Virus record (IMG/VR): IMGVR_UViG_3300050821_002544
DNA length: 64,000 bases
Strand: one strand, 5' to 3'
From: a virus
Lineage: Duplodnaviria; Heunggongvirae; Uroviricota; Caudoviricetes
The notes under the pieces are model-generated. The model did not search any database and had not been told where the DNA came from. It was given only the letters and a program-made list of their open reading frames with translations. Position 1 is the stretch's first letter. Each line of letters starts with the position of its first letter. Of the stretch, positions 5,181 through 46,762 are shown piece after piece. The position numbers and the translations under genes are program-made.

Positions 5181-6788
5181 TCAAACTATTGGACGATAAT
5201 CCTGATTAATCCCCGAATTATGGTCAGCCTTTGCCTTATTAGCACCTACCAGAAGATCAAGAAATTGACCTTCATTTTTTTCAGCAAATGAGCTAATAGC
5301 ATTATTACTAATGCGGCTTTCCTTGCCATGACTCGATACAACATAATCACTTGTAACTTCATCATATGTCACAGAAACGATAGTATTATACTTTGTAGAG
5401 ACTTCGAACAAAGTTTTAGGACTTGCAAATTTTGGCAATTGCGCTGGTGACGGAACTTTTGCCTTTGTGGCAAAACGGTTCGAATCAGGCTTTACTGCCG
5501 CAGGAATATTAAAAGTAGAATTATTTGATGAAGATGGAGCAACCGCATTAATTGAGGGAGGACCACCGGCTACAGGCGTAGTAGTTGCCTTTGTCTTTGC
5601 CGATGCATTCTTAAGAATGGTAGCAAAATCATCAGGAGATTGAGATGTAGATGATACCGTTGCAGCAACATTTATCCCATCATCGAATTTATTGTACAAA
5701 TCAAGAAAACTACGTTTTGTTTCTGTATCAAAACGATTCAAACACAATTCTACGGCAATCTGACGATCTTCAAAAATCGAATATGCCTTAGTAATATGTG
5801 TAAGACGACGAGTAGAAATGATTTCATCAATTCCACCATCTGCAAAAAGCTTACGAATGTTTCCAGCCCAATCAATCAGAATATCGATAAACGGAGCATC
5901 ATCAATAGACAAACTATTAAACAATCGTGCAAGAATATTACGTTCTGCTTTTGCATCCGGATATTCCTGTTCGACAGTAATTGCAAAACGCTCAAGGAAC
6001 GCTTCATTCAATGTATTAGTTCCAATAAAACGACCGTCTTCGCTACCCTTTCCTTTAGTGTTAGCAGTCGCCATAATATTAAAACCCTCAACCGGATGAA
6101 CAACTTCGCCCGTTCTCTTATTGAAGTATGGCTTGCCCTCTAGAATGGGTTGTAAGCAAAGGAGACGTTCAGTGCCAAGGTCAGTTTCATCAAGCAATAG
6201 AATTGCACCCCTACGCATTGCGGTGATAACCGGACCCTCACGCGGGACCGTATTACCATCCACCAAATCACTAGAACCAATTAGATCAAATTCATCCGTA
6301 TCTTTTGTAATATTCACACGGATATATTCACGCCCAATATTGGCACAAACCTGTTCTACCATCAATGTCTTACCATTGCCAGAAAGACCAGTAATATAGA
6401 CAGGATAAAAAATCTTCGATTCTATGATCTTCTTTAGTTTATTATAAAAACCGAATGGAACATATAGCGGGTCTTTTTCAGGAATAAGACTACCTTCAAT
6501 ATTCGAAGCAAGTACTTTTTGTACTGCCTCAGAAATAGGGGTTACGGTTGCCAATGTATCATCCTTTTGAGAAACTGTATCTTCATCTGCCGCGACGCGG
6601 TATTTACCAAATCCCTCTTCGAATTTTTTGGTAAAAATGAATTTAGGATACGGAAGCTTATTTGCTTTCACGTATTCATTAATCTGACGTTTAGAAACTA
6701 CCGAAATTTGATAAAATTCAGCAATACCATTACAGAACTCGGCTTGCTCAGAAGTCAGTTCTATACCTTTAATCTTCACTTTATTCAT
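5181..6788 (-). CDS. cobS: MoxR/CobS-like AAA+ (AAA_5) ATPase with Ser/Thr/Pro-rich C-terminal extension
   Basis: Walker A ITGLSGNGKTLMV and Walker B ILLLDETDLG. The first ATG of the ORF-track ORF (6797) overlaps the -10 TATAAT, so the start is placed at MNKVKIKG (6788), 7 nt after the -10. Confidence 0.75.
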   Translation of the reverse strand: MNKVKIKGIELTSEQAEFCNGIAEFYQISVVSKRQINEYVKANKLPYPKFIFTKKFEEGFGKYRVAADEDTVSQKDDTLATVTPISEAVQKVLASNIEGSLIPEKDPLYVPFGFYNKLKKIIESKIFYPVYITGLSGNGKTLMVEQVCANIGREYIRVNITKDTDEFDLIGSSDLVDGNTVPREGPVITAMRRGAILLLDETDLGTERLLCLQPILEGKPYFNKRTGEVVHPVEGFNIMATANTKGKGSEDGRFIGTNTLNEAFLERFAITVEQEYPDAKAERNILARLFNSLSIDDAPFIDILIDWAGNIRKLFADGGIDEIISTRRLTHITKAYSIFEDRQIAVELCLNRFDTETKRSFLDLYNKFDDGINVAATVSSTSQSPDDFATILKNASAKTKATTTPVAGGPPSINAVAPSSSNNSTFNIPAAVKPDSNRFATKAKVPSPAQLPKFASPKTLFEVSTKYNTIVSVTYDEVTSDYVVSSHGKESRISNNAISSFAEKNEGQFLDLLVGANKAKADHNSGINQDYRPIV

Positions 6789-6795
6789 ACCTGAC

Positions 6796-6801
6796 ATTAT
6801 A
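6796..6801 (-). promoter_or_regulatory. -10 box TATAAT of cobS promoter (TGTATAAT, leaderless arrangement)
   Basis: Minus-strand gctgTATAATgtcaggtATG. Confidence 0.5.
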
Positions 6802-6842
6802 CAGCATTTCGTTTAGAAGTATAGTATAATATACTTAATAGT

Positions 6843-6870
6843 ATCAATGACTTACATTAAGTACTTGATT
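6843..6870 (-). repeat. PeSL-like stem-loop element copy 1
   Basis: atcaatgacttacattaagtacttgatt; matches the consensus AATCAATGACTTACGCTAA-N5-TGATT. Confidence 0.6.
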
Positions 6871-9286
6871 AGACTGCAATTTCAGATGCAAAGCTTGTTA
6901 CCATCGCACGCTTAGAAGCCTTCTTTCTTTGAATTGCTGCGAATGCCTCACTAATCTGCGCATTAGTTTCTGCTTTACTAAAATCCTTAAATGATATGTC
7001 TTTAATAGACCCAGAAGCAGTCTCAACATAATAATATGAATCATATCCAAGTTTTACAATCTTGAAAAATCCATTCTTATCGATAGATTCATCTATCTGT
7101 GCCATTTTCTCATTAGAGAGATTTTCTTTCTTTGCATAACCTTGCAAGGTACGCTTTTCACCAACAAAGAAACCAATATGAAGACATTCGGTAGTAAGAC
7201 GAATAAGACGAGTCAATGCTGCTTGTACCTGATTGCCAGGACCATTTTCGACCATCACACGAACCTTAGTAATAGGATCAACAAAGCCAATATTGTACTT
7301 ATTACTATTATCCAAATCCATATGCCTATACATATCCGGATATTTAATACTCATACCACCTTCACCATCGGTAAGATAGATTACATTAATAATCTCAGCA
7401 CGAGTCTTTTCCTTAAATGCCTTAATAATCGATCTAGAAGCAATCACAGTCTCAATAAACGGTGTTCCACTAAGATTCATATTACCATTGTGCATACCCA
7501 TACGATAATCATTGAGCAAAAGCTTTTCATTAGGTGTAATAGAATTACTATCTTGTGTCATTGCAAAAACAATCATCATCGCTGCCGCACGATTAAAATT
7601 ACGTGGTGATAAGTCAGAATTAATTAGAGACTTAAGATGAAAAGTCTTACTATTAGGCAAAAATGCAGTAGGTGTCTTTGCTGTAAATTTTTGCTGAGTA
7701 TATTTTGTATCATTCATGTACGTTACAGAAGAATCAGAAAAACCATACACTTCAAAAGGTATACCAACCTTCTTACAAAACATTGCGAGAACAATAGCCT
7801 GTTCCATAGTATTGCGAATTACATCTACCATGGAGATAGACATATCTACAAACATAATCATACCATGGTCTTTGCCTTTCGGCGTATGAACCATCTTACG
7901 AAAAATGTTATTATTAAACTTATATTGCGAAATCTTACGCATATCAAGTTCACCAGTCTTTGACTCAAGCTGACGCGAATATTGATGCGCATTCTTACGC
8001 ATTTCAAATTCTTTTACAAGCAAAGAAATATACTTAATATTTTGCTTATGAAAATTTGCAAGGATTTCCTTTGAAACTAGATCATAATCAACTTTTGAAA
8101 GTGAATCGCGCATAGATTTACGCATAGCAGCTTCAAAAAAATCTACAATAGTTGCATTGGGGATTATAGTCTTCTTGAGGTCACATTCCGGGATATCAAG
8201 AAAAATATAGGGTCGCGCTACCTTATCAATTAACTGTTCTTCATTTTCTCGAAAAGATCGATCCGTGAGAGATTCAGGATCAGGCATTCCTACATCGTAG
8301 GAACCTTCACGACCTACTTGAGAATTGTTCTGATCTTCAAGGTCTTCGCCTTCTTCATCTTCTCCACCAGAATTACCACCGTTCCTATCGTCAGAATCAT
8401 CAGAATCGCTATCGCTTCCACTATCATCAGAATCACCGGAATCGTCGCCATCATCACTATCAACGTCGCTGCTATCCCCATTAGAATCAGAGGAATCATC
8501 GGTATTGTCATTGTCATCAGAAGTATTATCAGAGTCATCAGAACCATCTGAACTGTCCGATTCGTCATTATCATCTTCATCAGTTTTTTCATTTTTCTCA
8601 CTCTTTTTAGATTGGGTTTTATCAGTCTTTTCAGATTTTTCAGATTTTTCTTTAGATTTCTTTGGCTTGCCAGATATAAAATTCTGCATATCTTGCTGAT
8701 TATTAATCTTGTCTTCTTCTTTTTCTTTTACATAATCCCAAATTTTTTGGGTTATTTTTACTACCTCTTCCCATGTTTCGACATTTTCTAGTTCTTTGAC
8801 TAGTACACGTTCTTCATCATTAAATCTAATGGCAACACTAGAACCGCATTTAAATGCGAGATTAATACGATCAAGTAAATTAAGGGGCGAAAAATCATTA
8901 CCAAATTTCTTCACACCAAAGAAATCTCGGTTCAATAAAGTCTTATAACCTGCAATGAATGGTTTACGAATACCCGGAAAACGACGCTTTACTAATTTTT
9001 CTATGCGAGCGTCTTCACAAACATTAAGAAAACCTTGAAATTTAGCGCCCTTCTCTTTTGCTACAGATTCCCATTTTTCACTAGGAGTGTAAAGAGCATG
9101 ACCTATTTCATGTCCCATCAAAAGGTCATAAAGATCGCCTGTCATATCCTGCCAAATAGGGCACGTAAGAATACGTGTCTTCACATTAAAGGATGCAGTC
9201 TTAACAGGCAAATGTAGGACAGTAATGTTTTCCGCTGCTAAGAGCTTAGCAAGCAGAGATTTGCTCTCTGTAAGATTTGTTGACAT
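6869..9286 (-). CDS. cobT: CobT-like protein: N-terminal HExxH region, acidic D/S low-complexity linker, C-terminal VWA domain
   Basis: 805 aa. LLMGHEIGHALYT is an HExxH motif. A roughly 90-aa Asp/Ser/Glu-rich tract follows. MIDAS-like DxSxS in MIMFVDMSISMVD. Adjacent to the AAA_5 ATPase, the usual MoxR-VWA pairing. Confidence 0.65.
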   Translation of the reverse strand: MSTNLTESKSLLAKLLAAENITVLHLPVKTASFNVKTRILTCPIWQDMTGDLYDLLMGHEIGHALYTPSEKWESVAKEKGAKFQGFLNVCEDARIEKLVKRRFPGIRKPFIAGYKTLLNRDFFGVKKFGNDFSPLNLLDRINLAFKCGSSVAIRFNDEERVLVKELENVETWEEVVKITQKIWDYVKEKEEDKINNQQDMQNFISGKPKKSKEKSEKSEKTDKTQSKKSEKNEKTDEDDNDESDSSDGSDDSDNTSDDNDNTDDSSDSNGDSSDVDSDDGDDSGDSDDSGSDSDSDDSDDRNGGNSGGEDEEGEDLEDQNNSQVGREGSYDVGMPDPESLTDRSFRENEEQLIDKVARPYIFLDIPECDLKKTIIPNATIVDFFEAAMRKSMRDSLSKVDYDLVSKEILANFHKQNIKYISLLVKEFEMRKNAHQYSRQLESKTGELDMRKISQYKFNNNIFRKMVHTPKGKDHGMIMFVDMSISMVDVIRNTMEQAIVLAMFCKKVGIPFEVYGFSDSSVTYMNDTKYTQQKFTAKTPTAFLPNSKTFHLKSLINSDLSPRNFNRAAAMMIVFAMTQDSNSITPNEKLLLNDYRMGMHNGNMNLSGTPFIETVIASRSIIKAFKEKTRAEIINVIYLTDGEGGMSIKYPDMYRHMDLDNSNKYNIGFVDPITKVRVMVENGPGNQVQAALTRLIRLTTECLHIGFFVGEKRTLQGYAKKENLSNEKMAQIDESIDKNGFFKIVKLGYDSYYYVETASGSIKDISFKDFSKAETNAQISEAFAAIQRKKASKRAMVTSFASEIAV

Positions 9287-9339: not shown

Positions 9340-9366
9340 AATTAATGACTTACGCTAAATGATTGT
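9340..9366 (-). repeat. PeSL-like stem-loop element copy 2
   Basis: aattaatgacttacgctaaatgattg. Confidence 0.6.
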
Positions 9367-10056
9367 ATTTGCAGTAAATTTAAGAAATTGACCAGGATCA
9401 GCAACATTACTATCTGGTGTCATTTTCTTTCTTGCGTCTAGTGCTACTTTTTCCATTGCCTTACGAATAATTTCTTGTTTCTCTTGTTCTATTTTTTGTC
9501 TATTAAGAATCTTAATGTTCTTATAGACTTTCTTCTTCTGACGTTCAAGAATCATTTTAGGAACTTTTGATGTATAAACGATACCTTCCATATGATCGTA
9601 TTCATGGAGTATGATGCGCGCCGATAGACCAGAAAAAGTCTGTTCCTTAAATTCTCCATTCATATCCTGATATTTTATCTTAACAGATTCAGGACGCCTA
9701 ATAGGTAGAAACAAACCAGGAAACGTAAGACAACCTTCTTCAAATCCTGTCTCGCCAGTAGTTTCTAGAATCTCGGGATTAAAAAAGGCATAGCCGACAC
9801 CCTCTGAACCCATGACGAATACTCGCAAAGGAATACCACATTGATTAGCAGCAAGCCCAATACCATTACGTGCCTTCATAGTCTCAATCAATGATACTGC
9901 TAATTCACGTGCCAGAACAGGCGTGCGCGGCTGAAAAGTATCTACAAATCTAAACTCTTCTGTCTTCTGAGTTAGTATAGGATCAAATTTATCTACAAGA
10001 GGATAAATCTCATAACTATACATCTCACCATTTACATACTTAAGCAGCTTTCCCAT
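9355..10056 (-). CDS. def: Peptide deformylase with about 60-aa Lys/Glu-rich C-terminal extension
   Basis: Motifs GIGLAANQCG, EGCLTFPG and HEYDHMEG are the three PDF signature motifs. 233 aa. Confidence 0.88.
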   Translation of the reverse strand: MGKLLKYVNGEMYSYEIYPLVDKFDPILTQKTEEFRFVDTFQPRTPVLARELAVSLIETMKARNGIGLAANQCGIPLRVFVMGSEGVGYAFFNPEILETTGETGFEEGCLTFPGLFLPIRRPESVKIKYQDMNGEFKEQTFSGLSARIILHEYDHMEGIVYTSKVPKMILERQKKKVYKNIKILNRQKIEQEKQEIIRKAMEKVALDARKKMTPDSNVADPGQFLKFTANTII

Positions 10057-20228: not shown

Positions 20229-21587
20229 TTACTTCAAGTTGCTTACAATAAACTTGCGGTACCAGACATTGGTGTTAACAACCAAGTTACCTAGACCCTG
20301 AGTTAGACCCTGTGCGAATGGGTTTGCTACCAATCCATAACGAGTCTTGAAGCCAATCTTTGGCTGGAAGGTGTTAGGATCAATTGCACGTACCATCTGT
20401 AGAGGAACGTAAGGGCAGTAGAACAAACCTGCGTCGTATGCAATGTTACCCTTGTAACCGACTACTGCGTAGTCTGCACCAGAAACAGAATATGGATCTA
20501 CATAAACCTTCAAGCGACCGAATAGGGTACCTGCAAAGGTGTTACCTGTATCGTCAACATTTAGGTTTGTGTTGTTGGTTAGGGCAGACTGATAATCCAA
20601 CATACCAGACATTGCTAGCGCAGATGCCACGTCAGTTGAACAAATCAGAATGTTACCCTTACCACGACGAGTGTCTTTACCGATCTTGTTAGCTTCACGC
20701 TCAATTGCGTAAATTAGACCCTTGTAGTTTTCTACCTGCCAACGACCAGCAGCATCTACACCTGTTGCCAAGTTGTAAACACCGGCTACGTTTGCATACT
20801 GTACACCAGGAACAGCAGTTGCGTAGATAGTACGGATAACTTCACGATTGATTTCTGCCAAAATTTCGGTAGAAAGAATGTTAGAAAGTTCGGTTTCTGC
20901 ATCTAGACCATGAACAGCCTTCAAATCCTGTGCAAGTTCTAGAGTGTACTCTGCCTTTAGGGCGCGAGTGTTAGCAGTAACAGTTACCTTTTCGATTGCG
21001 AAACCCATTGCTCCGAATGCAGTTGCTCCACCCAAGTCTTCTGCGATTGTGGTTGGGAAACCATAACCAGTATTAGCTAGAGAGAAGTAAGATGAATTAG
21101 AAGTACCTGGATTTACATTCGCAGTATCGAATGGTGTGAAAGTACCATTACCTGAGAATGCATCATTTGCTTCATTATACAATGCTTCGGCAGTTGCTGC
21201 TAAGTTGGTTGTACCATTTGGAGCATACTTAGAACGCATTGCGAAGATCAAACCTGTTGGACCAGTCATTGGCTGGACACCACATACATCGTATGCGATT
21301 AGGTTTGGAAGAGAACGACGAACCAAGCTGATAAGGATAGGATCGAAACCGGCAACTGGACCACCAGCGGCTGCTCCACCACCATAACCACCAGTTCCTA
21401 CTGCGTTAGCAGGTAGGGTTTCTGTTAGGAAACCTTGGGTTGATTCTGCGTCAGAGCGACCTGCACGTTCTTGATTTTCAAGAAGAACAGATGTGACCCA
21501 ACGACGATATGGATCAGAAATTGCTGCAACACCTTCGGCTGCAATCACTGGATTCCACTTCTTTAATACGGCTTCTTTAATATACAT
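20229..21587 (-). CDS. 23: Major capsid protein gp23
   Basis: LPNLIAYDVCGVQPMTGPTGLIFAMRSKY resembles the conserved gp23 segment. 452 aa. SD AGGAG upstream. Confidence 0.9.
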   Translation of the reverse strand: MYIKEAVLKKWNPVIAAEGVAAISDPYRRWVTSVLLENQERAGRSDAESTQGFLTETLPANAVGTGGYGGGAAAGGPVAGFDPILISLVRRSLPNLIAYDVCGVQPMTGPTGLIFAMRSKYAPNGTTNLAATAEALYNEANDAFSGNGTFTPFDTANVNPGTSNSSYFSLANTGYGFPTTIAEDLGGATAFGAMGFAIEKVTVTANTRALKAEYTLELAQDLKAVHGLDAETELSNILSTEILAEINREVIRTIYATAVPGVQYANVAGVYNLATGVDAAGRWQVENYKGLIYAIEREANKIGKDTRRGKGNILICSTDVASALAMSGMLDYQSALTNNTNLNVDDTGNTFAGTLFGRLKVYVDPYSVSGADYAVVGYKGNIAYDAGLFYCPYVPLQMVRAIDPNTFQPKIGFKTRYGLVANPFAQGLTQGLGNLVVNTNVWYRKFIVSNLK

Positions 21588-21624: not shown

Positions 21625-22824
21625 TTAATAAGTTTGAGTTCTGTTAACAGCTTTTACATATGCTGCCATTGAAGCTGGAATTTCTTCCGTTACTTCACCA
21701 GGAGTTTCTTCTGTCAATTGAATGATAGAAGGTTGTTCCTGCTTGACCGTAGATTTTGTTCCGGCAGTGAAGTAACTCTCACGAATTGTCTTCAACTTGC
21801 TGGTGTATTCACCTTCTGTGGTAAACTCAACTCCCTCTGTGAGAGTCTTTAGCTTTACAGCTTGCGTGTCGGTCAGACCTTCGCTCACCGTTGCCAAAAT
21901 TTCGAACTTCTTGCTCTCACCCAACTTCTTTGAAAGTTCGGCATTAGCATTAAGCGCTTCGTTGACTTGATTAGTCAATTCAGCAATTTCTTGTGCTTGA
22001 GATTCTACTACGTCTACCTTCTCGGCAGGGACATCAACATAGTGTTCTGCAAATAGATTCTTTAGACCGCTCATGAAATCTTCTACGATTTCAGAACGTA
22101 GACCAGACTCAATAGCAACCTGATTTTCCTTGACCCAATTTTCTACGGTGTAGTTTAGGTAAGTATCGACTTGTTCTTCCATTGCTACCTGTGCATCTGC
22201 AAGGGTTTCTTCGGCAGCTTCTAGAATTTCTGCTTCTAGTGCTTCTGCAACCATTACTGCACGAGCAACTACAGCAGCTTCGAAAATTGCTGCCGCTTTT
22301 GTCTTAAATTCTTCTGTTAGAGTTTCACCAGAAAATAGAGCATCCATATCTTCTGTTACAGAGTAAGACTTCATTACTTCTACGGCATGATCCCAACGCT
22401 CTGCGCGGGCTGCTTCGATTTCTTCTTCTGTTAGCTCAGTCTCTTCTGTGGTAGGATGTGCATATGAACCATGCTCGGCGGCATGCGCACCATCATGTTC
22501 TTCTGGAGAAGATTTCTCTCCTGCCTTTTCTGTTCCTGGCTGCTTGCCACGGACAGTTTCCAAATCTTGCATAGGTGCCTTAGAATCAGAATCTGGCTTT
22601 GTACCTGGAGGCGTAGATTGTGGACGTGCGGCAGCAATTTTTTCACCAGTCTTTTCACCGGCTGGATTATCATAAGTAGCACCACCAAGATCAACAACAT
22701 TCTGTTGTCCTGCTAGTCCCTCTGTACCACGATCCGCAGCAAGATTGTGCATTGGCTCTTTTGGTGTAGATGTGCGAGACTTATTAAGTACATCCGCTGC
22801 TGCTTCAAGTAATGTGCGTGCCAT
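21625..22824 (-). CDS. 22: Prohead scaffolding core protein gp22 (acidic, Ala/Glu-rich)
   Basis: 399 aa, strongly acidic, with a helical-looking composition. Between gp21 and gp23 as in T4. Confidence 0.7.
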   Translation of the reverse strand: MARTLLEAAADVLNKSRTSTPKEPMHNLAADRGTEGLAGQQNVVDLGGATYDNPAGEKTGEKIAAARPQSTPPGTKPDSDSKAPMQDLETVRGKQPGTEKAGEKSSPEEHDGAHAAEHGSYAHPTTEETELTEEEIEAARAERWDHAVEVMKSYSVTEDMDALFSGETLTEEFKTKAAAIFEAAVVARAVMVAEALEAEILEAAEETLADAQVAMEEQVDTYLNYTVENWVKENQVAIESGLRSEIVEDFMSGLKNLFAEHYVDVPAEKVDVVESQAQEIAELTNQVNEALNANAELSKKLGESKKFEILATVSEGLTDTQAVKLKTLTEGVEFTTEGEYTSKLKTIRESYFTAGTKSTVKQEQPSIIQLTEETPGEVTEEIPASMAAYVKAVNRTQTY

Positions 22825-22880
22825 TGATAAAACTCCTATACGATGAATCTATTTATAAAACTAAGTTCTTTAGTATGACT

Positions 22881-23528
22881 TTATAGTAACTTAAGAAATT
22901 TCTCAAAACTTTGTAATACTACTTCTTCTAATTCTTTGCGAGATGCCTTCATTACATTAGTCTGGATTTCCGCAATATTTGCTTCTTTTATGATACCATT
23001 ATCCCATACCCATTCTTTACTTTCCATGATACTTTGTACTAATGCATCTGGTGCAGAAGGATCGGCAACAATATCACCGGCAGTAGCAAGGAAAAAATCA
23101 TCCTGTACCATCTGCGCTTCTTTGATTGCTTTTAGAGAACCTAGACCACGAGAAGAAACACCTAATTGACCACCACAATTGATAAGTCCACGGACAATCT
23201 TTCCATGACCTTCTTCGGTAATAATCGCCTTTCCAATGAAATTATTACCATCTTCTTTTAAGGAAATAATACGATGTGAAACACGATCAAGATTGATAGA
23301 TGGTGTATCAGGATGACCCAATTCACCCCATCCACGACCTGTGTTTACAGATTCTTTTACATAGCGTGCAACTTCACGTTGTAGTAAATGCTTAGGATAG
23401 ACACGATGATTTCTATTCTCGATTTCAGATTGTAGAAAGATACCTTCGATATAGAGATTCTTCTTGCCATCGGCAGTAGCTTCCTCTAGATACTTTACAT
23501 CTTCTGTGAGTTCTCTAAGTAACTTCAT
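22881..23528 (-). CDS. 21: Prohead core protease gp21
   Basis: LYIEGIFLQSEIENRNHRVYPKHLL resembles T4 gp21 LYIEGIFMQAEVVNRNKRLYPKRIL. GVSSRGLGSL is conserved. Confidence 0.9.
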   Translation of the reverse strand: MKLLRELTEDVKYLEEATADGKKNLYIEGIFLQSEIENRNHRVYPKHLLQREVARYVKESVNTGRGWGELGHPDTPSINLDRVSHRIISLKEDGNNFIGKAIITEEGHGKIVRGLINCGGQLGVSSRGLGSLKAIKEAQMVQDDFFLATAGDIVADPSAPDALVQSIMESKEWVWDNGIIKEANIAEIQTNVMKASRKELEEVVLQSFEKFLKLL

Positions 23529-23529
23529 T

Positions 23530-23859
23530 TTATCTTCCGCCTCTTAAACCTGCCAATTTACGTAATGAACGTTTGCGCTTCATCAATGCACGAGCTAATT
23601 TAGCACGTCTCTTAATTTTACCTTTTCTTGCACCACGCTTGCGATGTAGTTTCTCTTGCGCACTCATGCGGACAAGTTTTCCACCACGAAGAGTATAACC
23701 TTTTACGCCAGATTTCTTGACGTTACGCTGTACCTTACCATTACGAATTCTAACGCGAATCCTTTTGATTCTAGGTCCAGCTTCCGCCAGATATTCCTCA
23801 AAAGTCTTCATATAATTATTAGTATCCAACCTGCGTATTTGCCCAGGCACCAGCACCAC
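23530..23859 (-). CDS. Highly basic Arg/Lys-rich small protein (candidate internal/core protein)
   Basis: C-terminal 70 aa are about 45% K/R. Immediately upstream of gp21 in the transcript. Start may be the internal MKTF. Confidence 0.5.
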   Translation of the reverse strand: MVLVPGQIRRLDTNNYMKTFEEYLAEAGPRIKRIRVRIRNGKVQRNVKKSGVKGYTLRGGKLVRMSAQEKLHRKRGARKGKIKRRAKLARALMKRKRSLRKLAGLRGGR

Positions 23860-24283
23860 GAGAAGGACTTGCCCAATACGTTCCTTGGAATTCTTTTACG
23901 AAAGTAAGTACCAAAGTGAATGCATCAGCAGAACCTAAACTTTGTTGAAGAAGATTGATATCACCTGTTGGTGTATTTGCAGAGTTAGGAATATACTGAT
24001 TGAAAATACCATCATTAAAACGACCCATTGTGATAGCTTTAGAATTAGCATTTACAGAACTTACATATTCAATAGCAAGAAAACCGTTGTTCATAGAACT
24101 AGTATATGTTGCTGCCGTTAGAGATAGAATACAAGGAAGAGAAGTGTTTGCACCCCTCAATGTATTTGCAGTAACAATAACGCTATTTGCATTAGTTGCA
24201 GCATTGTAAAATCCAATGACTTTTACAGTGACATAATGATCCTGGTCATCTAGAACTAATACTTCTGGTACATTAACTGCCAT
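23819..24283 (-). CDS. Hypothetical head-cluster protein (154 aa)
   Basis: Complete ORF among head morphogenesis genes. Confidence 0.45.
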   Translation of the reverse strand: MAVNVPEVLVLDDQDHYVTVKVIGFYNAATNANSVIVTANTLRGANTSLPCILSLTAATYTSSMNNGFLAIEYVSSVNANSKAITMGRFNDGIFNQYIPNSANTPTGDINLLQQSLGSADAFTLVLTFVKEFQGTYWASPSRGAGAWANTQVGY

Positions 24284-24294
24284 ATATTTCTACC

Positions 24295-25017
24295 TTATTT
24301 CAAATTTTGTGCTGCAAAGTCAGCAACCTTAGTTAAACCTTCTGCACTATTCATATGCTTTTCAATAGTTGCCTTATTTTGCGGAGTCATCATGGTATGT
24401 AGTTTGACCAAATGTGCTGCCTGCGCAGCAGATAATTTATGTCTAGAACCGTTACCAAATACGACTTCTCCATCAGTCTTAGTCTTTGCAATATGATGAA
24501 TCTTATGAATCGTTGCTTCTTCTACAGTTTCAGGATATACATATTCCTCAAAATCTTCATCGATAGTACGTAAGAACTTATTATAACGATGTGTTGCCTG
24601 ACCCACATTATTATTCAGATAATGTTCGGCAGCAGCATGTAAATGTGAATGTGCCTGCTTACCGTATCTCTGAACAATATGCTCTTTAATCTTCGCAAGA
24701 TCAGGATGATCCGTGTGCTTAGAACCCGCTTTATAATGAAGCTTTAGAGCATTCGTATAGTCGCCAAACATATCATCATGTTCTGTCTCTACTAATCTTT
24801 CAAATTCTTCTGAGACTCCAGCAACTTCTGGTTCCATCGTAGAAGAATAAGGAACCGAAATATCGATTCCCAATTTATCGTTATGATATAGTGCAACCTT
24901 CTTTCCTGATGGAAATTGACGGATTGCTTTACGCTTTAATACAAGAATAGTAGGAGGATCTCTTTCCTTTACTGATTCTTGTATTTTGACGTTCTTGATT
25001 TCACTTAATGTCTTCAT
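24295..25017 (-). CDS. Histidine-rich protein (240 aa)
   Basis: Multiple His clusters (HSHLHAAAEHY, IHKIHHIAK, LHTMMT...KHMNS). In the head-gene cluster. Confidence 0.5.
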   Translation of the reverse strand: MKTLSEIKNVKIQESVKERDPPTILVLKRKAIRQFPSGKKVALYHNDKLGIDISVPYSSTMEPEVAGVSEEFERLVETEHDDMFGDYTNALKLHYKAGSKHTDHPDLAKIKEHIVQRYGKQAHSHLHAAAEHYLNNNVGQATHRYNKFLRTIDEDFEEYVYPETVEEATIHKIHHIAKTKTDGEVVFGNGSRHKLSAAQAAHLVKLHTMMTPQNKATIEKHMNSAEGLTKVADFAAQNLK

Positions 25018-25916
25018 TATTTACCGTGATGCCACTTCTTTGCATTCTGAGCGAATGTTGCACGCTTTGCAAATACTCCACCTTTTGCTTTTTCCTTAGC
25101 AATATCCTTACCGGTAATTTTTGCATCAGGAGACTTACCAAGATCCTTGTGCATCTGTCCCTTCTTTACAGGACCGATTGGACCTTTCTCTGCCATGTAT
25201 TCTTCGTTATTCAAAGAACCGACATGTTCAACATGAACTTTGTTAGGATGCTTTACATCACGACTCACATGAAATTTATGAGTCTTATGTGCAGAATCAC
25301 CAGCTAGGTTTTGTGCCATACTATATTTGTGATGTACAATATAGATTGCTTTATCCTTAGATTCTTTGCTCTTAGGATTAAAAGGTGTGTAGCCTGCACG
25401 ATGTATATGATAATGTTTAGTTTCGTAATGATTACCATCTAATGAGCCAACACCATTCATTCCAGCATGTGTTCCAACATGAACATCATGAACAGTATGT
25501 GCCATATGTTCCATGCTGCCAGGTAGTACTACTGCTTCATCCAAGTTTTGAGTAAGACCTTGGAACTCAAACTTAAAAGAGTTTTGAGTTTCTTCTTTGA
25601 CTGCTGGAGAACCACCTTCATCGGCTAGCCCGCTTCCTGGTTCCATTGTCTTACGATCCTGTTTAGGACCAGAAGATAGTTTTGGTTCTGGAGCAGATGC
25701 CTTACCTTTTCCACCTGGAGCAGGCTTCTTCCATACTTGAGAAACACCACCAGAAGTACCACCTTCTTCTGATACAGTTTCTGCATTGAAGAAATTTGAG
25801 GCAACTTCAATCTTCAAGCCTTCTAGTACTTGAACAACCTTCTCTGCAAGCTTCTCTTCTACGAGTGCCTTGAATGCTAGGGCATCCTTATTTTGTGCAT
25901 GTGTTACAAAAGACAT
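25017..25916 (-). CDS. Histidine-rich protein (299 aa), Gly/Lys/Pro-rich N-terminal half
   Basis: HMAHTVHDVHVGTHAG, KHYHIHRAG, IVHHKYS, HKTHKFHVSRDVKHPNKVHVEHVG, KKWHHGK. Confidence 0.5.
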   Translation of the reverse strand: MSFVTHAQNKDALAFKALVEEKLAEKVVQVLEGLKIEVASNFFNAETVSEEGGTSGGVSQVWKKPAPGGKGKASAPEPKLSSGPKQDRKTMEPGSGLADEGGSPAVKEETQNSFKFEFQGLTQNLDEAVVLPGSMEHMAHTVHDVHVGTHAGMNGVGSLDGNHYETKHYHIHRAGYTPFNPKSKESKDKAIYIVHHKYSMAQNLAGDSAHKTHKFHVSRDVKHPNKVHVEHVGSLNNEEYMAEKGPIGPVKKGQMHKDLGKSPDAKITGKDIAKEKAKGGVFAKRATFAQNAKKWHHGK

Positions 25917-25951: not shown

Positions 25952-26353
25952 TTAGGAAGTTAAGGCTTTAGCTATTCTAGGTTTATAAGGTTTCAATTTT
26001 CCTCTCTTTTTACCCATTCTAGTTAATGACATTTTTAACTTTGTTTCTGCTGAATGTCGTCTATTTGACATTTTTCGTCTTGTTTCTTCTGAACGTTTCA
26101 TACCGGTATGTGATAAAGCATTCTTTCTTTTTGATTCTTCCGATCTAGGTCTATGAAGAATTTTGGTTATAGCTTCCTCTTTTCCTATTTGTCCACTTAA
26201 TGTTAAGTAGGCAATTTCATCCTGCCAATTTCTATACATCATCCATAATTGTTTATGAGCTTCTGCATGTTCTTCAATTGTTAATTCCACAAGATTAGAT
26301 GGATCATTAGGACCATTCATATGCTTTGGTATTATATGATGTTTGTGTAACAT
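25952..26353 (-). CDS. HNH homing endonuclease-like protein with basic C-terminal tail
   Basis: HHIIPKHMNGPNDPSNLVELTIEEHAEAH is an HNH motif. Inserted between gp20 and the head genes. ATGA overlap with gp20. Confidence 0.7.
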   Translation of the reverse strand: MLHKHHIIPKHMNGPNDPSNLVELTIEEHAEAHKQLWMMYRNWQDEIAYLTLSGQIGKEEAITKILHRPRSEESKRKNALSHTGMKRSEETRRKMSNRRHSAETKLKMSLTRMGKKRGKLKPYKPRIAKALTS

Positions 26354-28038
26354 TATGGTTTCTTAGGCTTTGGTTTTCCGGCAGGTTTACTACTATCACC
26401 AAATGCCTGTTGTGCTCTCTGATTTAGTTCTTCTGGATTTGCAGCAGGAGTCGGAGCAGGAGCGCCTGGTGCCGCAGGACTTCCGGCAGGTGATGCCATA
26501 GGATCGGCTGGTGGTCCTGCCATCTTCTCAGCATCCTTTGCCATTTCCTCATTTTCCTTATCCATTTCTTCTTCCATATCTTCGATTTCTTTCTCATCGA
26601 ACATCAGTACTTTCTCTTGTACCCAACGCTTTGAGAAGAATCTACCAATATATGGATCCACAATCATAAGCAAATTAACACGGTTTGTTAATAGTTCTGC
26701 TTCTTTCAATTCTGTAAAGTTATTGTCCTTGATGAAATTGTAATGAATGTCCATCTTGAACTCATTCCATTCATCTAGGGTACAGATACCTTTTAAAGAT
26801 AATTGGCGAGCAAGTAGTTCATCGAATAGGATAGAGAATCTTGCACGTAGTTTATCTACGAATTTATCGAATTTTAATTCATCTCTGGTGATTTCAGAAG
26901 AACGACCTAAAGAAAATCCTTGATTATTTTCTAGACGAGAAGCTGGCACGCCAAGTGCTTTATACAGTTTCTTTTCCATGTATAATACATCTTCCATCTG
27001 TCCTAGATTCTGACCGGCAGGAAGTGTAGTAATTTCTGTATTCTTGCCTTCTCCACGACGAGGCATCCAAAAATCTTCTAACATAGACATATGACGTGTC
27101 TGATCTTTAATTTCTCCAGTACCTGCATCATATACAAGCTTATTACGGAACTTGTTCATCATGTCTTTCAGGTATTGCTCTGCCTTCATCTTTGGAAGGT
27201 TTCCAACATCTACATAGAATACTCTGCGTTCAGGGGCGCGAGAAACACGGTAGATAACAGTTGCATCTTCAAGGAATCGCAATTGATTCATAGGACGGAT
27301 TGCCTTATGAAGATAACTCAATACAGTTGATTTTGCAGGATCGAACAAACCAGAAGTAAGATGGATTACAGAATCTTCTGATAGCTTTACGCCACCGGCA
27401 AATGATCCTACAATCTGTGGTGATTGTATAGAACTATTGACTACCTTTTCATTATAAAGATAGAAGGTATCAATACGATCAATAACCTCAACACCTTGAG
27501 CATTCTTAACTTTTGTAATATTACGGATTTTACGGATTCTACGTGGATCGACATATATCAATGTCTTGATACCATCGCGCGGATTGTCTTTATCAATGAC
27601 TACGTTATAATAGGTACGACCATCTACATACCAACGACGGAAAATATCGCCGCCAAAATTATTGAAGTCTAGAAGACGAAGACATTCATCAAATTCGTCT
27701 CTGATCTTTTTCTTAATAGAATCTGGTTGCTTGAGGTCTTCTAGTTCAATACGAACAATTTTACCCTCGTCATCATGAACGATAGCTTCGTTTACAATAT
27801 CTTCTATTGCAGATTCCATTTCTGGCTGCATAGACATAGTACGATATTTGGTAATAAGATCGACTTCGGTTCTATAGGTACCATCCAAGTCCACATAGAC
27901 GCCATAGTGTGCGCCTGTTTGGATGTTAATAGCACCATCTTCGAGATTAGGAGTAATAGGACTTTCTGGAATAGAATCATCTTCGTCTGCACGAGTGATT
28001 TTAAAACCAAATAATCTGAAACTATTCTGTTCTGCCAT
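26353..28038 (-). CDS. 20: Portal vertex protein gp20 with Pro/Ala-rich C-terminal tail
   Basis: DLITKYRTMSMQPEMESAIEDIVNEAIVHDDEGKIV resembles T4 gp20 [32 protein letters not shown]. 561 aa. Confidence 0.88.
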   Translation of the reverse strand: MAEQNSFRLFGFKITRADEDDSIPESPITPNLEDGAINIQTGAHYGVYVDLDGTYRTEVDLITKYRTMSMQPEMESAIEDIVNEAIVHDDEGKIVRIELEDLKQPDSIKKKIRDEFDECLRLLDFNNFGGDIFRRWYVDGRTYYNVVIDKDNPRDGIKTLIYVDPRRIRKIRNITKVKNAQGVEVIDRIDTFYLYNEKVVNSSIQSPQIVGSFAGGVKLSEDSVIHLTSGLFDPAKSTVLSYLHKAIRPMNQLRFLEDATVIYRVSRAPERRVFYVDVGNLPKMKAEQYLKDMMNKFRNKLVYDAGTGEIKDQTRHMSMLEDFWMPRRGEGKNTEITTLPAGQNLGQMEDVLYMEKKLYKALGVPASRLENNQGFSLGRSSEITRDELKFDKFVDKLRARFSILFDELLARQLSLKGICTLDEWNEFKMDIHYNFIKDNNFTELKEAELLTNRVNLLMIVDPYIGRFFSKRWVQEKVLMFDEKEIEDMEEEMDKENEEMAKDAEKMAGPPADPMASPAGSPAAPGAPAPTPAANPEELNQRAQQAFGDSSKPAGKPKPKKP

Positions 28039-28062
28039 TAGTTAAATCCTCATATTATAAAT

Positions 28063-28086
28063 GGAGAGGCAGATTCCTACCTCTCC
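28063..28086 (-). terminator. Hairpin between gp19 and gp20 (possible attenuator)
   Basis: ggagaggcagattcctacctctcc is a 7-bp GC-rich stem. No strong T-run. Confidence 0.35.
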
Positions 28087-28094
28087 AAGTTCAA

Positions 28095-28661
28095 TTAACC
28101 AACAGAGACAGTATTGACAGGAAATGTGGGATCGAACCAATACTGGTAAGCCAACGTAACAGCATATTCCTGTATCGTATCATTAGCACCCCAATCTAGA
28201 TCAAGTGGGGCAACATCTACAGGAAACATACCAACTAGATTGATTTGTTTAATAATATCACCAGTCTTTGAGTACTGAGTTACTACTGCATCAGAACCAT
28301 ATCCGCCGTCTACTACGGTAGCAGCAGGATCACGGACATTACCAATTGGATCATTGATACCATTAACCCACTGTTCGAATGCATTGCGCACAGAATAGTC
28401 TTCATCGTTAATGACTTGTATTGTCCAATCTGCAAATGTTCTGTTACCTGCAAGCTTTACTTCACGACCAAAGTAGAATAATGGTGCGATACCGATTGTA
28501 GAGCCAGGCAGTTGAGATGCCTTTACAAGAAGAGTACTCTTTTGCGCAGCCGTTCCTCCAACCTGAACAAAGGAAGGAAATTGTAGTTGAACATCAAAAA
28601 GATTAGGACGAGCACCATCACCAATCAAGTTAGTTCTAAAAGTTGTTACATCAAATGCCAT
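28095..28661 (-). CDS. 19: Tail tube protein gp19
   Basis: ARPNLFDVQL, AGNRTFADWTIQVINDEDY and LDLDWGANDTIQEYAVTLAYQYW resemble T4 gp19 motifs. Confidence 0.9.
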   Translation of the reverse strand: MAFDVTTFRTNLIGDGARPNLFDVQLQFPSFVQVGGTAAQKSTLLVKASQLPGSTIGIAPLFYFGREVKLAGNRTFADWTIQVINDEDYSVRNAFEQWVNGINDPIGNVRDPAATVVDGGYGSDAVVTQYSKTGDIIKQINLVGMFPVDVAPLDLDWGANDTIQEYAVTLAYQYWFDPTFPVNTVSVG

Positions 28662-28680: not shown

Positions 28681-28688
28681 TATTTATA
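28681..28688 (-). promoter_or_regulatory. T4-type late promoter TATAAATA upstream of gp19
   Basis: Minus-strand gcTATAAATAggatataacGGAGAtacatATG. Confidence 0.65.
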
Positions 28689-28690
28689 GC

Positions 28691-30409
28691 TTAGAACTGA
28701 CCAACAATTTCGTTAAAGCTTACGCTAGTACGGACTGCTACAAAGTTCAATTGAATGAAGTTGATACTACGAGCAGGCTTGATGTAGATATCGCCAACAA
28801 ACTGATTTGCATCAATGATGTCACCAGTGTTATTAGTAGTATCGCATACAACCTTGAAATCTGTAATACCACGACGACCTTGTACAGTACGTAGGAATGG
28901 AGTTACTAGATTTACAAATTGAGCACGAGTAAATGTATCATTGAATTCGAACAAACTTGCACGTGCTGCCTTAGAGATTGCTTTTTCAAGAACAATAAAC
29001 AATCTACGTACATTGATACGATCAAATGCAGATGCAAAGTTCAAGAATGTCTTGTCGCCAAACAATAGCGTACCTTCACCTGGGAAACTTACTACTGGAT
29101 TGACACCAGCCTTGTAAAGAGTATCACGATCAGTCTGACCAGGATTGAATGCTAGTTTTACAACATTCTTAATAACACCACGTTGTAGACCGGCAGGACT
29201 CCACCATGGATCACGTAGATTATCAGTCTGAGCACATAGACCAGCAATATCGCCATTCAATGGAATCCAACGATATAGATCATTATACTTATCATACTGA
29301 TACTTCCAACCAGAATCGAATACTGCGTAAGAAGAACGAGTAATAGAACCACTATTAACATAGTTTGCAATAGAGGCAGATTGACCAGTTACATCCTGTG
29401 CATTTGCCAATGGTGGAGAACAGAATGCCACACAATCTGCGCGCACCGCAGCAACAGAACCAATAGCATAACTTTGAATGATAGAATCTGCTGCACCCGT
29501 CATCAATAGAGATATATCTACTTGTTCTGTATTAATGAACAATGACAAAGCGGTTTCTGTATTTGCATCTGTAACAATACCATCGTTTCCACCACCAAGA
29601 CTAGACACACTTGGAGAAGGATCATTAGTGAAGGTAGGAAGAGAAGCTACCGTTGCTCCCCAACCTGCAATATTTGCAGAAGGAACACCTGTGTTGTAAA
29701 CATAACGTGATTGCTGCCATAGAACTTCATGGTAATAGTTACTAGAACCAGTAGGAGTCAATGCATCTCTAATACGAGAAAGACCCTGATATGTTTCTAG
29801 AATAGTATTTGCCTGACCTGTAAACACGCCATCCTGATCGACAACAATAACATGGATTTCATCTCCAGTCACCGCACCATTAGATACAGTAGATACATAT
29901 GGAGAAGTACCAGGAGCACGATCAAATACACTTGCAAAAGTGTATAGAGGATCAGAAGTGTTGCTTGAATTTGCAGTCCATACGGCAGCATTTGCCCATA
30001 CGATAACTTGTAAAGAATTTCCTACGTTACCAGGATAACGTGCAGTAAATGGATTTCCTGCAACCTGAAAGTTATATGCATTGTTGAAGAAATCATCTTC
30101 ATTGTTAATAACCATACCGGCAGCATTTGCTGTTGCATTCTTAGTATTAGTTCCGGCAGCACGTGCAATCTGTAGATTATTAGAATAAGCTAAGAAATTT
30201 GCGCCTGTGAAGAACGATGAAGCGGTGTTATTATCTGGATCAAGGAACTTATTATTCAGATCAACTTCTGATACTACCTGGGTAATCTTTAACGCTGGAC
30301 CCCATTGAAAAGTTCCGGCAAGAGCACCAGTAGATACTGACACCGCTGGAATTCCAGTGGTTAGATCGATTTCACTTGTATTGACGCCGGGAGATACTTG
30401 AAATGCCAT
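28691..30409 (-). CDS. 18: Tail sheath protein gp18
   Basis: N-terminal ...VSVSTGALAGTFQWGPALKITQV resembles T4 gp18 ...TGTAALAGKFQWGPAFQI. 572 aa. Confidence 0.9.
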   Translation of the reverse strand: MAFQVSPGVNTSEIDLTTGIPAVSVSTGALAGTFQWGPALKITQVVSEVDLNNKFLDPDNNTASSFFTGANFLAYSNNLQIARAAGTNTKNATANAAGMVINNEDDFFNNAYNFQVAGNPFTARYPGNVGNSLQVIVWANAAVWTANSSNTSDPLYTFASVFDRAPGTSPYVSTVSNGAVTGDEIHVIVVDQDGVFTGQANTILETYQGLSRIRDALTPTGSSNYYHEVLWQQSRYVYNTGVPSANIAGWGATVASLPTFTNDPSPSVSSLGGGNDGIVTDANTETALSLFINTEQVDISLLMTGAADSIIQSYAIGSVAAVRADCVAFCSPPLANAQDVTGQSASIANYVNSGSITRSSYAVFDSGWKYQYDKYNDLYRWIPLNGDIAGLCAQTDNLRDPWWSPAGLQRGVIKNVVKLAFNPGQTDRDTLYKAGVNPVVSFPGEGTLLFGDKTFLNFASAFDRINVRRLFIVLEKAISKAARASLFEFNDTFTRAQFVNLVTPFLRTVQGRRGITDFKVVCDTTNNTGDIIDANQFVGDIYIKPARSINFIQLNFVAVRTSVSFNEIVGQF

Positions 30410-31510: not shown

Positions 31511-32473
31511 TTACTTGCTATTTGACGGCACCTGTAGGAAAGGAATAGGCGCACCAGCATAGATTGCTTGAGGCAATTTACCATCCCAACGTTTTGCTTG
31601 TTCCATCTGAACCTCGATTCTACGCAATTCTAATACATCCTTAGATTTTGTAAGGGCGTCATTTTGAACTTGCAATGCCTGTGCCTGTGCTTGTGCTTCC
31701 TTCAAGGTCGCATATGCTTGACCATCTGCCTTTGCTTTTTGTGCATTAGCTTCTGCCGTGGCAATTTCAACTTTTTGTTGTTGTGTTGCAGCGACTGTCA
31801 ATTGCTGTTTCTCAGCAGTCTGTAATAGCTGATCCTGTTGGACTTTTTCATTAATAGTCTTCTGATATGCCGGATCATATTCAAATTTAGTCATATCCAC
31901 CTGAATAACTTGAGCACCATATACAGCTAACTTAGCAGAAAGCAAGTTACGAACTTCATTAGAAACTTCCTGACGCTTATTGAGCAAATCAGGAGCAGTG
32001 AACTTTGCAGTCACAGCCTTGAATGTTTCATGTGTGGCAGAATCGACATATGAAGACAAATCACCATCATGAGAATACTTCTCATACACTTCGGCAACCT
32101 TATTTGGTTCAATACTATATCGAACAACCAAACTCGTCATTACAGGCTGTTGATCCGCAGTACCACCAACAGCATTTTCAATCTTTGCCGTTTCGGCGCG
32201 AATATTGAAACTCTGTAGATGTTCCCATGGCGGAAGCAATACCCAACCTTCTTGTTCAATACCAATGATCTTACCACCACGAGTCACAACTCCGCGTGTT
32301 CCTGTCTGTACAGTATTAACGGGATATGCCCATATTACGAAAAATAAAACTGTTAAGCCAATTGCCGCATCACGTACAATAGCATTAATATTTGGTTCAT
32401 TGCGCGAACCCAAGTCATTACCGCTTCTATCCTTAAGAATTTTCTTATTAATATATCTATCACTAAAACTCAT
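31511..32473 (-). CDS. SPFH/band-7 (prohibitin/stomatin-like) membrane protein with Gln/Ala-rich coiled-coil tail
   Basis: N-terminal TM helix (LTVLFFVIWAYPV), SPFH-like core (VVTRGGKIIGIEQEG...), C-terminal AQ-rich coiled coil. 320 aa. Confidence 0.65.
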   Translation of the reverse strand: MSFSDRYINKKILKDRSGNDLGSRNEPNINAIVRDAAIGLTVLFFVIWAYPVNTVQTGTRGVVTRGGKIIGIEQEGWVLLPPWEHLQSFNIRAETAKIENAVGGTADQQPVMTSLVVRYSIEPNKVAEVYEKYSHDGDLSSYVDSATHETFKAVTAKFTAPDLLNKRQEVSNEVRNLLSAKLAVYGAQVIQVDMTKFEYDPAYQKTINEKVQQDQLLQTAEKQQLTVAATQQQKVEIATAEANAQKAKADGQAYATLKEAQAQAQALQVQNDALTKSKDVLELRRIEVQMEQAKRWDGKLPQAIYAGAPIPFLQVPSNSK

Positions 32474-46501: not shown

Positions 46502-46762
46502 TTAGACTACCGTACTCATCTTGAAAATCAGTGCCTTGTCCATGATCGTCACTCGGTCTGCACCAGTGACATTAATCAAAAAATCATACACTGCGACAGT
46601 CGCATCTACGCGGACACAGTAGTTATGAAGATCGATGCTCGCAATGCCGATCAATTTCAATCCCTCACGTGTGAGGAATTTCTGTACGGCAAGCATCTGA
46701 TTAAGCTCCGTGCCGGTAATGTTGACTTGATTCGTCTTGCGATACTGGTTTAGTGTTTTCAT
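46502..46762 (-). CDS. Hypothetical protein (start trimmed to MKTLNQ)
   Basis: The first ATG overlaps the -10 TAGAAT; the second ATG is 7 nt after the -10. Confidence 0.4.
   Translation of the reverse strand: MKTLNQYRKTNQVNITGTELNQMLAVQKFLTREGLKLIGIASIDLHNYCVRVDATVAVYDFLINVTGADRVTIMDKALIFKMSTVV

Follow-up and report, generated by a model that had tools for sequence, protein, structure and literature searches.

In bacteriophage T4, the prohead core protein gp67 ('PIP'; PF17634, phrog_1064) is encoded directly 3' of the portal gene and has 80 amino acids (aa); its first 45 residues or so form an amphipathic helix, and it has L/I-x-E motifs and a terminal poly-Asp/Glu tail. The T4 internal proteins (IPs) IPI, IPII, IPIII and Alt begin with a short sequence of the form M-K-T-[FYL]-x-[EQ]-[FYI], which ends in L/I-x-E; the cargo behind it changes fast and is unrelated from one protein to the next. 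In IPIII, the capsid targeting sequence (CTS) comprises the first 10 residues, and gp21 cuts after L/I-X-E (PMC9026906). IPII and IPIII start with MKTYQEFIAE and IPI with MKTFKEF; the genes of the IPs are scattered outside the head cluster, each of them carries one cargo, and their histidine (His) content is about 1%. Here we report on two adjacent His-rich open reading frames (ORFs), ORF299 and ORF240, which lie between the gp20 portal gene and the gp21 prohead protease gene of an uncultured tailed virus (Caudoviricetes, IMG/VR record IMGVR_UViG_3300050821_002544). The window is the whole stretch of 64,000 nucleotides that was analysed, and all the window features located below are on its minus strand. 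We propose, with a probability of about 0.55, that both proteins are core-targeted internal head (prohead-core) proteins, processed by gp21 and each made up of a string of cargo modules.

ORF299 resembles gp67 in its position behind the portal gene, in its collinear N-terminal helix and in its L/I-x-E motifs; it differs by its 299 aa, in which a linker and two modules, one folded and His-rich, the other rich in Lys, take the place of the acidic tail. The proteins of the clade formed by this phage and its relatives resemble the T4 IPs in the short start followed by changing cargo and, by inference, in a logic by which they would be targeted, cleaved, retained and ejected. Unlike those of the T4 IPs, their genes are located between gp20 and gp21, encode up to four or five modules with cleavage motifs, contain 5-12% His and can use the gp67 helix instead of a CTS. 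The cargo of the clade shows no sequence similarity to the T4 IPs, and that of the window gives no PHROG or Pfam hits; since the T4 IPs are mutually unrelated, homology to IPI-III is not strictly defining for CTS proteins. The differences from T4 are the location in the head cluster, the multi-module polyprotein-like design, the use of gp67 as a carrier, and the composition. In the giant phages phiKZ, 201phi2-1 and SPN3US, head-internal proteins are also processed into multiple fragments by a T4-type prohead protease (PMC5694885, PMC7411985); these inner-body or ejection proteins belong to another lineage, with another cleavage motif and no detected homology, and they are not known to be His-rich.

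Architecture of the two histidine-rich proteins

The first-pass annotation of the window had singled out positions 24295 to 25916 as encoding two adjacent proteins with dense His clusters. This interval corresponds exactly to two minus-strand ORFs, ORF299 (25017-25916) and ORF240 (24295-25017), and all six peptides which it quoted are found in them. A GAGGA ribosome-binding site precedes ORF299, the stop of ORF299 overlaps the start of ORF240 in the sequence TAATG, and both genes share their coding strand with the late head genes. Counting bears out the clusters: 21 of the 299 residues of ORF299 (7.0%) and 18 of the 240 residues of ORF240 (7.5%) are His, against a background of 1.57% in the other 48 minus-strand ORFs of the window having at least 110 aa (binomial P=2e-8 and 7e-8, respectively), and the two proteins rank as the top two among these 50 ORFs. 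The density is highest in residues 132-235 of ORF299, with 17 His in 104 residues (P=8e-13). Cys is absent from both proteins. The His are conserved in homologues: nine of the 18 in ORF240 are conserved at 90% or more among 24 homologues and, in an alignment of 11 sequences of the His module of ORF299, His accounts for 10 of the 25 conserved columns, six of them invariant and four near-invariant. We considered whether the His could stem from chance composition or from ORFs that are not real, and rejected both on account of this conservation, of the number of homologues and of the confident fold predictions. It had also been remarked that no His-rich core or internal protein was known in T4-type phages; our literature search, whose coverage is incomplete, found none either.

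The 24 homologues of ORF299 align as a mosaic. Residues 2-44 (25785-25913) form a gp67-like N-terminal helix, modelled at 7-44 by AlphaFold2 (AF2). Residues 3-47 match positions 4-48 of the phrog_1064 profile collinearly, with E=9e-4, and an hhalign comparison of the N-terminal profile of the clade with T4 gp67 places columns 1-45 on columns 1-45 (probability 89.6%, E=1.9e-6). These profile matches identify ORF299 as the putative gp67 homologue of the clade, in which the acidic tail appears to have been exchanged for fused cargo: with its 299 aa and its pI of 9.2, it does not have the small acidic-tailed form of gp67. The supposition that His-rich proteins stand in place of gp67 has thus to be abandoned, since the first 45 residues of ORF299 are themselves gp67-homologous. 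A gp67-type gene comes right after the portal gene and before gp21 in the window (there with an HNH insertion) and in the relatives L001, L003, L004, L009, L010 and L012.

Behind the helix, residues 45-110 (25587-25784) are a linker of Gly, Pro, Lys and Ser which is predicted to be disordered (the predicted local distance difference test, pLDDT, is below 50 over most of 46-107) and whose length differs between homologues. The tripeptide L125-D126-E127 (25536-25544), at the end of a short helix before the His module, is a putative gp21 cleavage site, and every His module that we found is preceded by L-[DE]-E or I-x-E. The His-rich module itself (residues 132-235, 25212-25523) is modelled as one helix with a sheet of four to five strands, at a pLDDT of 85-92. 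A hidden Markov model search with it in 1.84 billion representative proteins returned 9 hits only, seven of which are proteins of the phage family or more distant proteins bearing the module, while the other two are very long proteins matched over short stretches; no match was seen in Pfam, PDB or BFVD. None of the 9 hits is an identifiable cellular relative from which a function could be borrowed.

The His-rich and Lys-rich modules meet at M241-A242-E243 (25188-25196), a non-canonical form of the motif at whose position homologues have V-I-E or I-A-E. The Lys-rich helical module (residues 247-297, IGPVKKGQMH...NAKKWHH, 25026-25178) belongs to a fragment, 244-299, of pI 10.4. A Foldseek search of BFVD with the ORF299 model gave nothing at E<=0.001; some 60 columns, presumably those of the Lys-rich module, align with each of two small phage proteins that are uncharacterised. 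This module also exists as free-standing proteins of 53-75 aa in phage and bacterial contigs: one is encoded directly 3' of a LigD (non-homologous end-joining ligase) gene in a bacterial-looking contig, and another in a different phage contig with an SU10-type portal gene (L022, 3472-3651; L021, 4245-4424). It may be a family of small nucleic-acid-binding proteins without a Pfam entry.

ORF240 belongs to a family of 41 hits, 24 of which were aligned with a mean column identity of 61%, and it adjoins an ORF299-type gene in all long contigs. Its residues 1-14 (MKTLSEIKNVKIQE, 24976-25017) are a CTS-like propeptide ending in I-Q-E. They are followed by the best-conserved part of the protein, a three-stranded beta domain (15-77, 24787-24975) ending in L-V-E77, then by a His-rich helical bundle with 10 His in 77 aa (78-154, 24556-24786) ending in I-D-E154 and, in residues 155-240 (24298-24555), by an acidic peptide of 13 residues ending in V-E-E167 and a basic C-terminal domain with 7 His and a pI of 9.9. 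The AF2 model has a three-stranded domain at 28-57, a helical bundle at 71-152 (pLDDT about 90) and a mixed C-terminal domain at 162-238, with low-confidence segments at 10-17, 61-75 and 155-165. The conserved [LIV]-x-E sites E14, E77, E154 and E167 are situated in or beside these low-confidence linkers. In the bundle (pLDDT 85-92), H80, H94, H104 and H127 are conserved. Compared with PDB by sequence profile, ORF240 gave only chance-level matches to cGAS, and full-length Pfam and PHROG scans of ORF299, ORF240 and the two following genes, ORF154 and ORF93, gave nothing significant. In L011 (2508-4208), whose gp20 is 53% identical, the ORF240 homologue is without the central His-rich bundle and has 3.2% His.

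ORF240 agrees in part with the T4 CTS: its start, MKTLSEI, matches, and the cleavage motif comes at I-Q-E14. Of the 24 aligned homologues, 20 have [LIV]xE motifs that end at columns 6 and 14. A 10-residue CTS pattern, drawn from starts of this kind, has a single match in the six frames of the window, at ORF93 (23530-23811), whose MKTFEEYLAE start precedes a tail rich in Arg and Lys. The ORF called mechanically at this place (23530-23859, 109 aa, from a GTG) overlaps the last part of ORF154 and begins 16 codons too early; the true start is likely the ATG at 23811, giving 93 aa and the MKTFEEYLAE start, as in the homologues of 93-95 aa. Relatives have the CTS-like starts MKTFKQHLTE, MITFKQFINE and MLTFKQYIKE. 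ORF299, with its gp67 helix, has no such start. The shorter 7-residue CTS-like pattern has one other match in the window, in an 86-aa ORF (46502-46762) beginning with MKTLNQY; its product, encoded away from the head cluster, could be a further protein targeted to the head.

Module exchange and the junction motif in relatives

The order gp20, gp67-type protein, optional CTS protein, ORF240, ORF154, ORF93, gp21, gp22, gp23 recurs in contigs of 176, 112, 76 and 22 kb. Within this frame, the modules are combined in various ways. The gp67-type N-terminus (gp67N) stands alone, as a protein of 91-98 aa, in L009 and L012; it is followed by the His module in L001 and eight database proteins, by the His and Lys-rich modules in the window and P0002, and by a fossil internal CTS with the Lys-rich, S and D modules in L003. 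A CTS precedes the His, S and D modules in L010, the Lys-rich, S and D modules in L012 and P0019, the S and D modules in L001 and L015, and the Lys-rich module in P0020. The occurrence of the same modules behind a gp67N or a CTS start fits with cargo carried on interchangeable targeting signals.

The borders between modules have a common mark. In 41 of the 43 distinct junctions, [LIV]-x-E is found at most 9 residues upstream, against 16% at random positions of the same proteins, an excess whose significance is overstated as the junctions are related by descent. The motif is kept across four types of module and behind a wide variety of upstream partners. The gp23 of the window keeps the T4 maturation site FLTE, and the specificity of its gp21 protease is therefore probably the same as in T4.

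Homology searches yielded the 24 homologues of ORF299 and the 41 of ORF240, and none among 50,697 phage records (tblastn); a megablast of the region for near-identical DNA in these records also returned nothing. Profile scans with ORF240 found 3 loci in IMG/VR and 7 in the metagenomes of the Joint Genome Institute (JGI). This means that the clade is sparsely sampled. The nearest isolates, judging from the capsid protein, are marine cyanomyoviruses, with a best identity of 58-59%; as this identity is no higher, a marine habitat is an assumption.

Several observations concern the relatives themselves. Module D is a second His-rich module (EHMSDAAHELVLHADNHAQLHH...AAAHWEAHHRDEL, about 15 His in 96 aa), which is absent from the window and is carried by L001 (6649-7353), P0003, P0007, P0012 and P0017-P0019; seven of its nine copies weakly match DUF1348 (best E=0.0018). 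A homology between this helical module and the bundle of ORF240 was considered and rejected (hhalign probability 0.1%). The 5-kb contig L002 (1-4991) is 97.6% identical to L001 over the portal end, the gp67N-His gene and 70 nt further, and then switches to genes of cobalamin biosynthesis (CobS, a CobC-like phosphatase, an aminotransferase and CbiA); it is probably a chimeric assembly, a real recombinant being the alternative. The gp23 gene of L003 (11086-12455) and several genes of the L004 interval (5236-7472) are split into at least two ORFs, which probably reflects frameshift errors of assembly and makes their boundaries unreliable.

Proposed fate of the proteins and possible reasons for the histidine

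The course of events that we propose runs as follows. ORF299 and ORF240 would be synthesised late, together with the head genes, and the gp67 helix of ORF299, or a CTS, would take the proteins into the assembly core on the portal. Once the shell is assembled, gp21 would cut after the Glu of [L/I/V]-x-E at the module borders and release modules of 6-13 kDa and small propeptides into the head interior. Those modules that are basic or His-rich would remain associated with the DNA and would probably enter the host with it, like T4 IPI-III. The sequences themselves show the enrichment and conservation of His, the homology to gp67, the CTS-like starts, the constant position between portal and protease genes, the shuffling of modules and the excess of the motif at their junctions; we infer from them that the proteins are packaged, cut by gp21, retained and ejected. 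The first-pass annotation had already thought of a prohead-core or packaged internal protein, an idea which is made plausible by the gp67-homologous N-terminus, the CTS-like starts and the gp21 motif at the module borders.

A number of points weigh against this proposal. The match to gp67 is weak: the Pfam family GP67 (PF17634) gives no hit at E<=10, and a pairwise BLASTP returns no match. The likeness of ORF240 to the T4 CTS is limited to some 7 residues at its N-terminus, and we rejected ORF240 as a homologue of T4 gp68 or IPIII, hhalign giving a probability of 0.15% for IPIII and no match for gp68. The [LIV]xE motif is short and common, the junctions are not independent of each other, and one of the two exceptions among the 43 is the His/Lys-rich junction of the window itself, M-A-E, with Met at P3. 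The tblastn search leaves the two proteins without a cultured relative. Lastly, the computed results would agree equally with fragments that stay in the head and with fragments that leave it.

According to a rival explanation, the proteins are a disposable scaffold: they would build or size the prohead core, be degraded by gp21 and leave as pieces before DNA packaging, without any role in infection. Such is the fate of most fragments of T4 gp67, gp68 and gp22 (PMC9026906), and it would suit the gp67 helix of ORF299 and the conservation in the clade of ORF240, ORF154 and ORF93, which is that of core components. But close relatives, with 84-92% identity to the window in gp20 and gp23, differ in whether they have the His and Lys-rich modules or carry others in their stead, and variation of this kind is typical of accessory cargo and not of an essential scaffold; moreover, folded domains of 6-13 kDa should hardly pass through the pores of the shell as short peptides do. 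We regard a purely disposable scaffold as rather unlikely. We give far less credence still to the proteins being foreign to the head, that is, late cytoplasmic enzymes, chaperones or anti-defence factors which merely happen to be located in the head cluster; the His-rich bundle of ORF240, with its conserved H-D pair, might in that case be a hydrolase-like site.

The reason for the His is a separate question. Our preferred guess is the coordination of transition metals by the folded modules, followed by a pH-dependent charge for DNA binding. The first of these, which the first-pass annotation had also suggested, is tentative: Zn, Ni, Cu or Co would be coordinated by conserved His in the His module and in the bundle of ORF240, and the head would carry metal-loaded or metal-scavenging proteins to be released into the host, which is compatible with gp21-processed internal head proteins. 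It is suggested by some 10 His conserved at specific positions in about 90 residues of a confidently predicted fold, without Cys, by the 10 His columns already mentioned, and by strand His in register with core hydrophobic residues (H213/F215/V217; V229/H231), an arrangement that would be unusual unless they were ligands. In our sequence and fold searches, neither of the two models matches a known fold, and no known metal-binding family is detected. Hpn, HypB, SlyD and UreE are His-rich bacterial metal-storage or chaperone proteins, or tails of such proteins, consisting mostly of low-complexity disordered tracts. ORF299 and ORF240 are like them in His density and in the absence of Cys, whereas here the His are at conserved positions of predicted folds; Pfam and PDB searches found no homology to His-rich metal-storage proteins.

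Under the other explanation, which we find less probable than metal binding, the modules are pH-switchable counter-ions of DNA. The His-rich fragments would be nearly uncharged at cytoplasmic pH and would become polycations in an acidic micro-environment of packed DNA, or in an acidic habitat; they would thus help to condense the genome and would let the DNA go after injection. The calculated charges go in this direction, from -0.9 at pH 7.5 to +7.6 at pH 6 for the His module, and from -0.6 to +5.0 for residues 78-154 of ORF240. Permanently basic modules exist in the same genes (pI 10.4 and 9.9), ORF93 is rich in Arg and Lys, and several unrelated cargo modules of relatives contain 5-10% His; that unrelated His-rich modules fill the same slots suggests a bulk property. 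However, a role in charge alone does not need position-specific conservation inside a folded domain, and about 1% His is enough in the T4 internal proteins. A wider proposal is that selection has made the interchangeable capsid cargo of the clade His-rich in general, at least five unrelated His-rich modules being found in its cargo slots, and that metal-loaded or metal-scavenging His domains are packed alongside the DNA and injected. We consider this quite doubtful; if it were true, the injected domains would, as soon as infection begins, change the availability of metals in the host or supply a cofactor, and would be a kind of ejected effector that has not been described for any phage.

Surrounding genes and meaning for T4-like phages

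The genes around the locus are those of a T4-like phage, which also encodes a clamp loader, a sliding clamp, gp46/47-like proteins, UvsW and a T4-type terminase. Upstream lie gp18 (28691-30409), gp19 (28095-28661) and the gp20 portal gene (26353-28038), in whose homologues PF07230 (Portal_T4) is found; downstream of ORF240 come ORF154 (23819-24283), ORF93, gp21 (22881-23528; PF03420 E=4e-38, phrog_207 E=3e-75), which is the presumed processing enzyme, gp22 (21625-22824) and gp23 (20229-21587). The portal gene, the HNH gene and the gp21 protease which the first-pass annotation saw on the flanks are indeed there; it left out ORF154 and the basic 93-aa gene, which stand between ORF240 and gp21. 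ORF154 keeps its position throughout the clade, has 0-1% His and no CTS-like start, and found no family in the Pfam and PHROG scans. The profile of ORF93 aligns with gp68 through the basic C-terminal tails only (E=0.007, probability 5%), and one member of the family matches phrog_3503 with E=0.18. In L011, a single protein of 161 aa fuses a gp67-like helix, an acidic linker and an ORF93-type basic tail.

T4-type late-promoter-like sites, TATAAATA, are located just upstream of gp19 (28681-28688) and of gp22 (22850-22857); the window has four such matches, every one of them on the coding strand, but their total number is below the chance expectation. The gap between gp19 and gp20 contains an 11-bp G+C-rich hairpin with a T-rich tail (28062-28087). 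The portal region seems to draw selfish elements: in the window, an HNH/NUMOD3 homing-endonuclease gene (25952-26353), which is not part of the system, is inserted between the portal gene and ORF299, and it is absent between gp20 and the gp67N-type gene in L001, L009 and L012; in L003 (2591-5960), an intein (PF14890) is present in the portal gene, and an additional ORF of 210 aa is found between gp19 and gp20. Among the accessory genes of the window are an AAA_5 ATPase, a peptide deformylase and an SPFH/Band_7 protein (5181-6797, 9355-10056 and 31511-32473); an SPFH/Band_7 gene also stands upstream of the tail genes in L001.

Cyanophage-related T4-like phages are said to lack gp67 (PMC2984593) and, according to one review, gp67 and gp68 are missing from cyanomyoviruses. 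The detectable gp67 homologue of the present clade, which has cyanomyoviruses as its nearest isolates, bears on the first of these statements. In Synechococcus phage S-SSM4, a single gene of 110 aa between portal and protease encodes a helix and an acidic tail, with a weak profile match.

Finally, the proposal has consequences beyond this locus. The repeated His-rich cargo is without precedent in T4 internal proteins and points to a chemical function, either the handling of metals or a pH-dependent binding of DNA. Proteins packaged in the head and probably injected could be recognised from sequence alone, by their position between gp20 and gp21, by a gp67 or CTS start and by modules bounded by [LIV]-x-E. 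The T4 code of CTS and gp21 cleavage would reach a distant, uncultured branch of the T4-like phages, where it would serve a polyprotein-like, swappable cargo, some of it fused to gp67.

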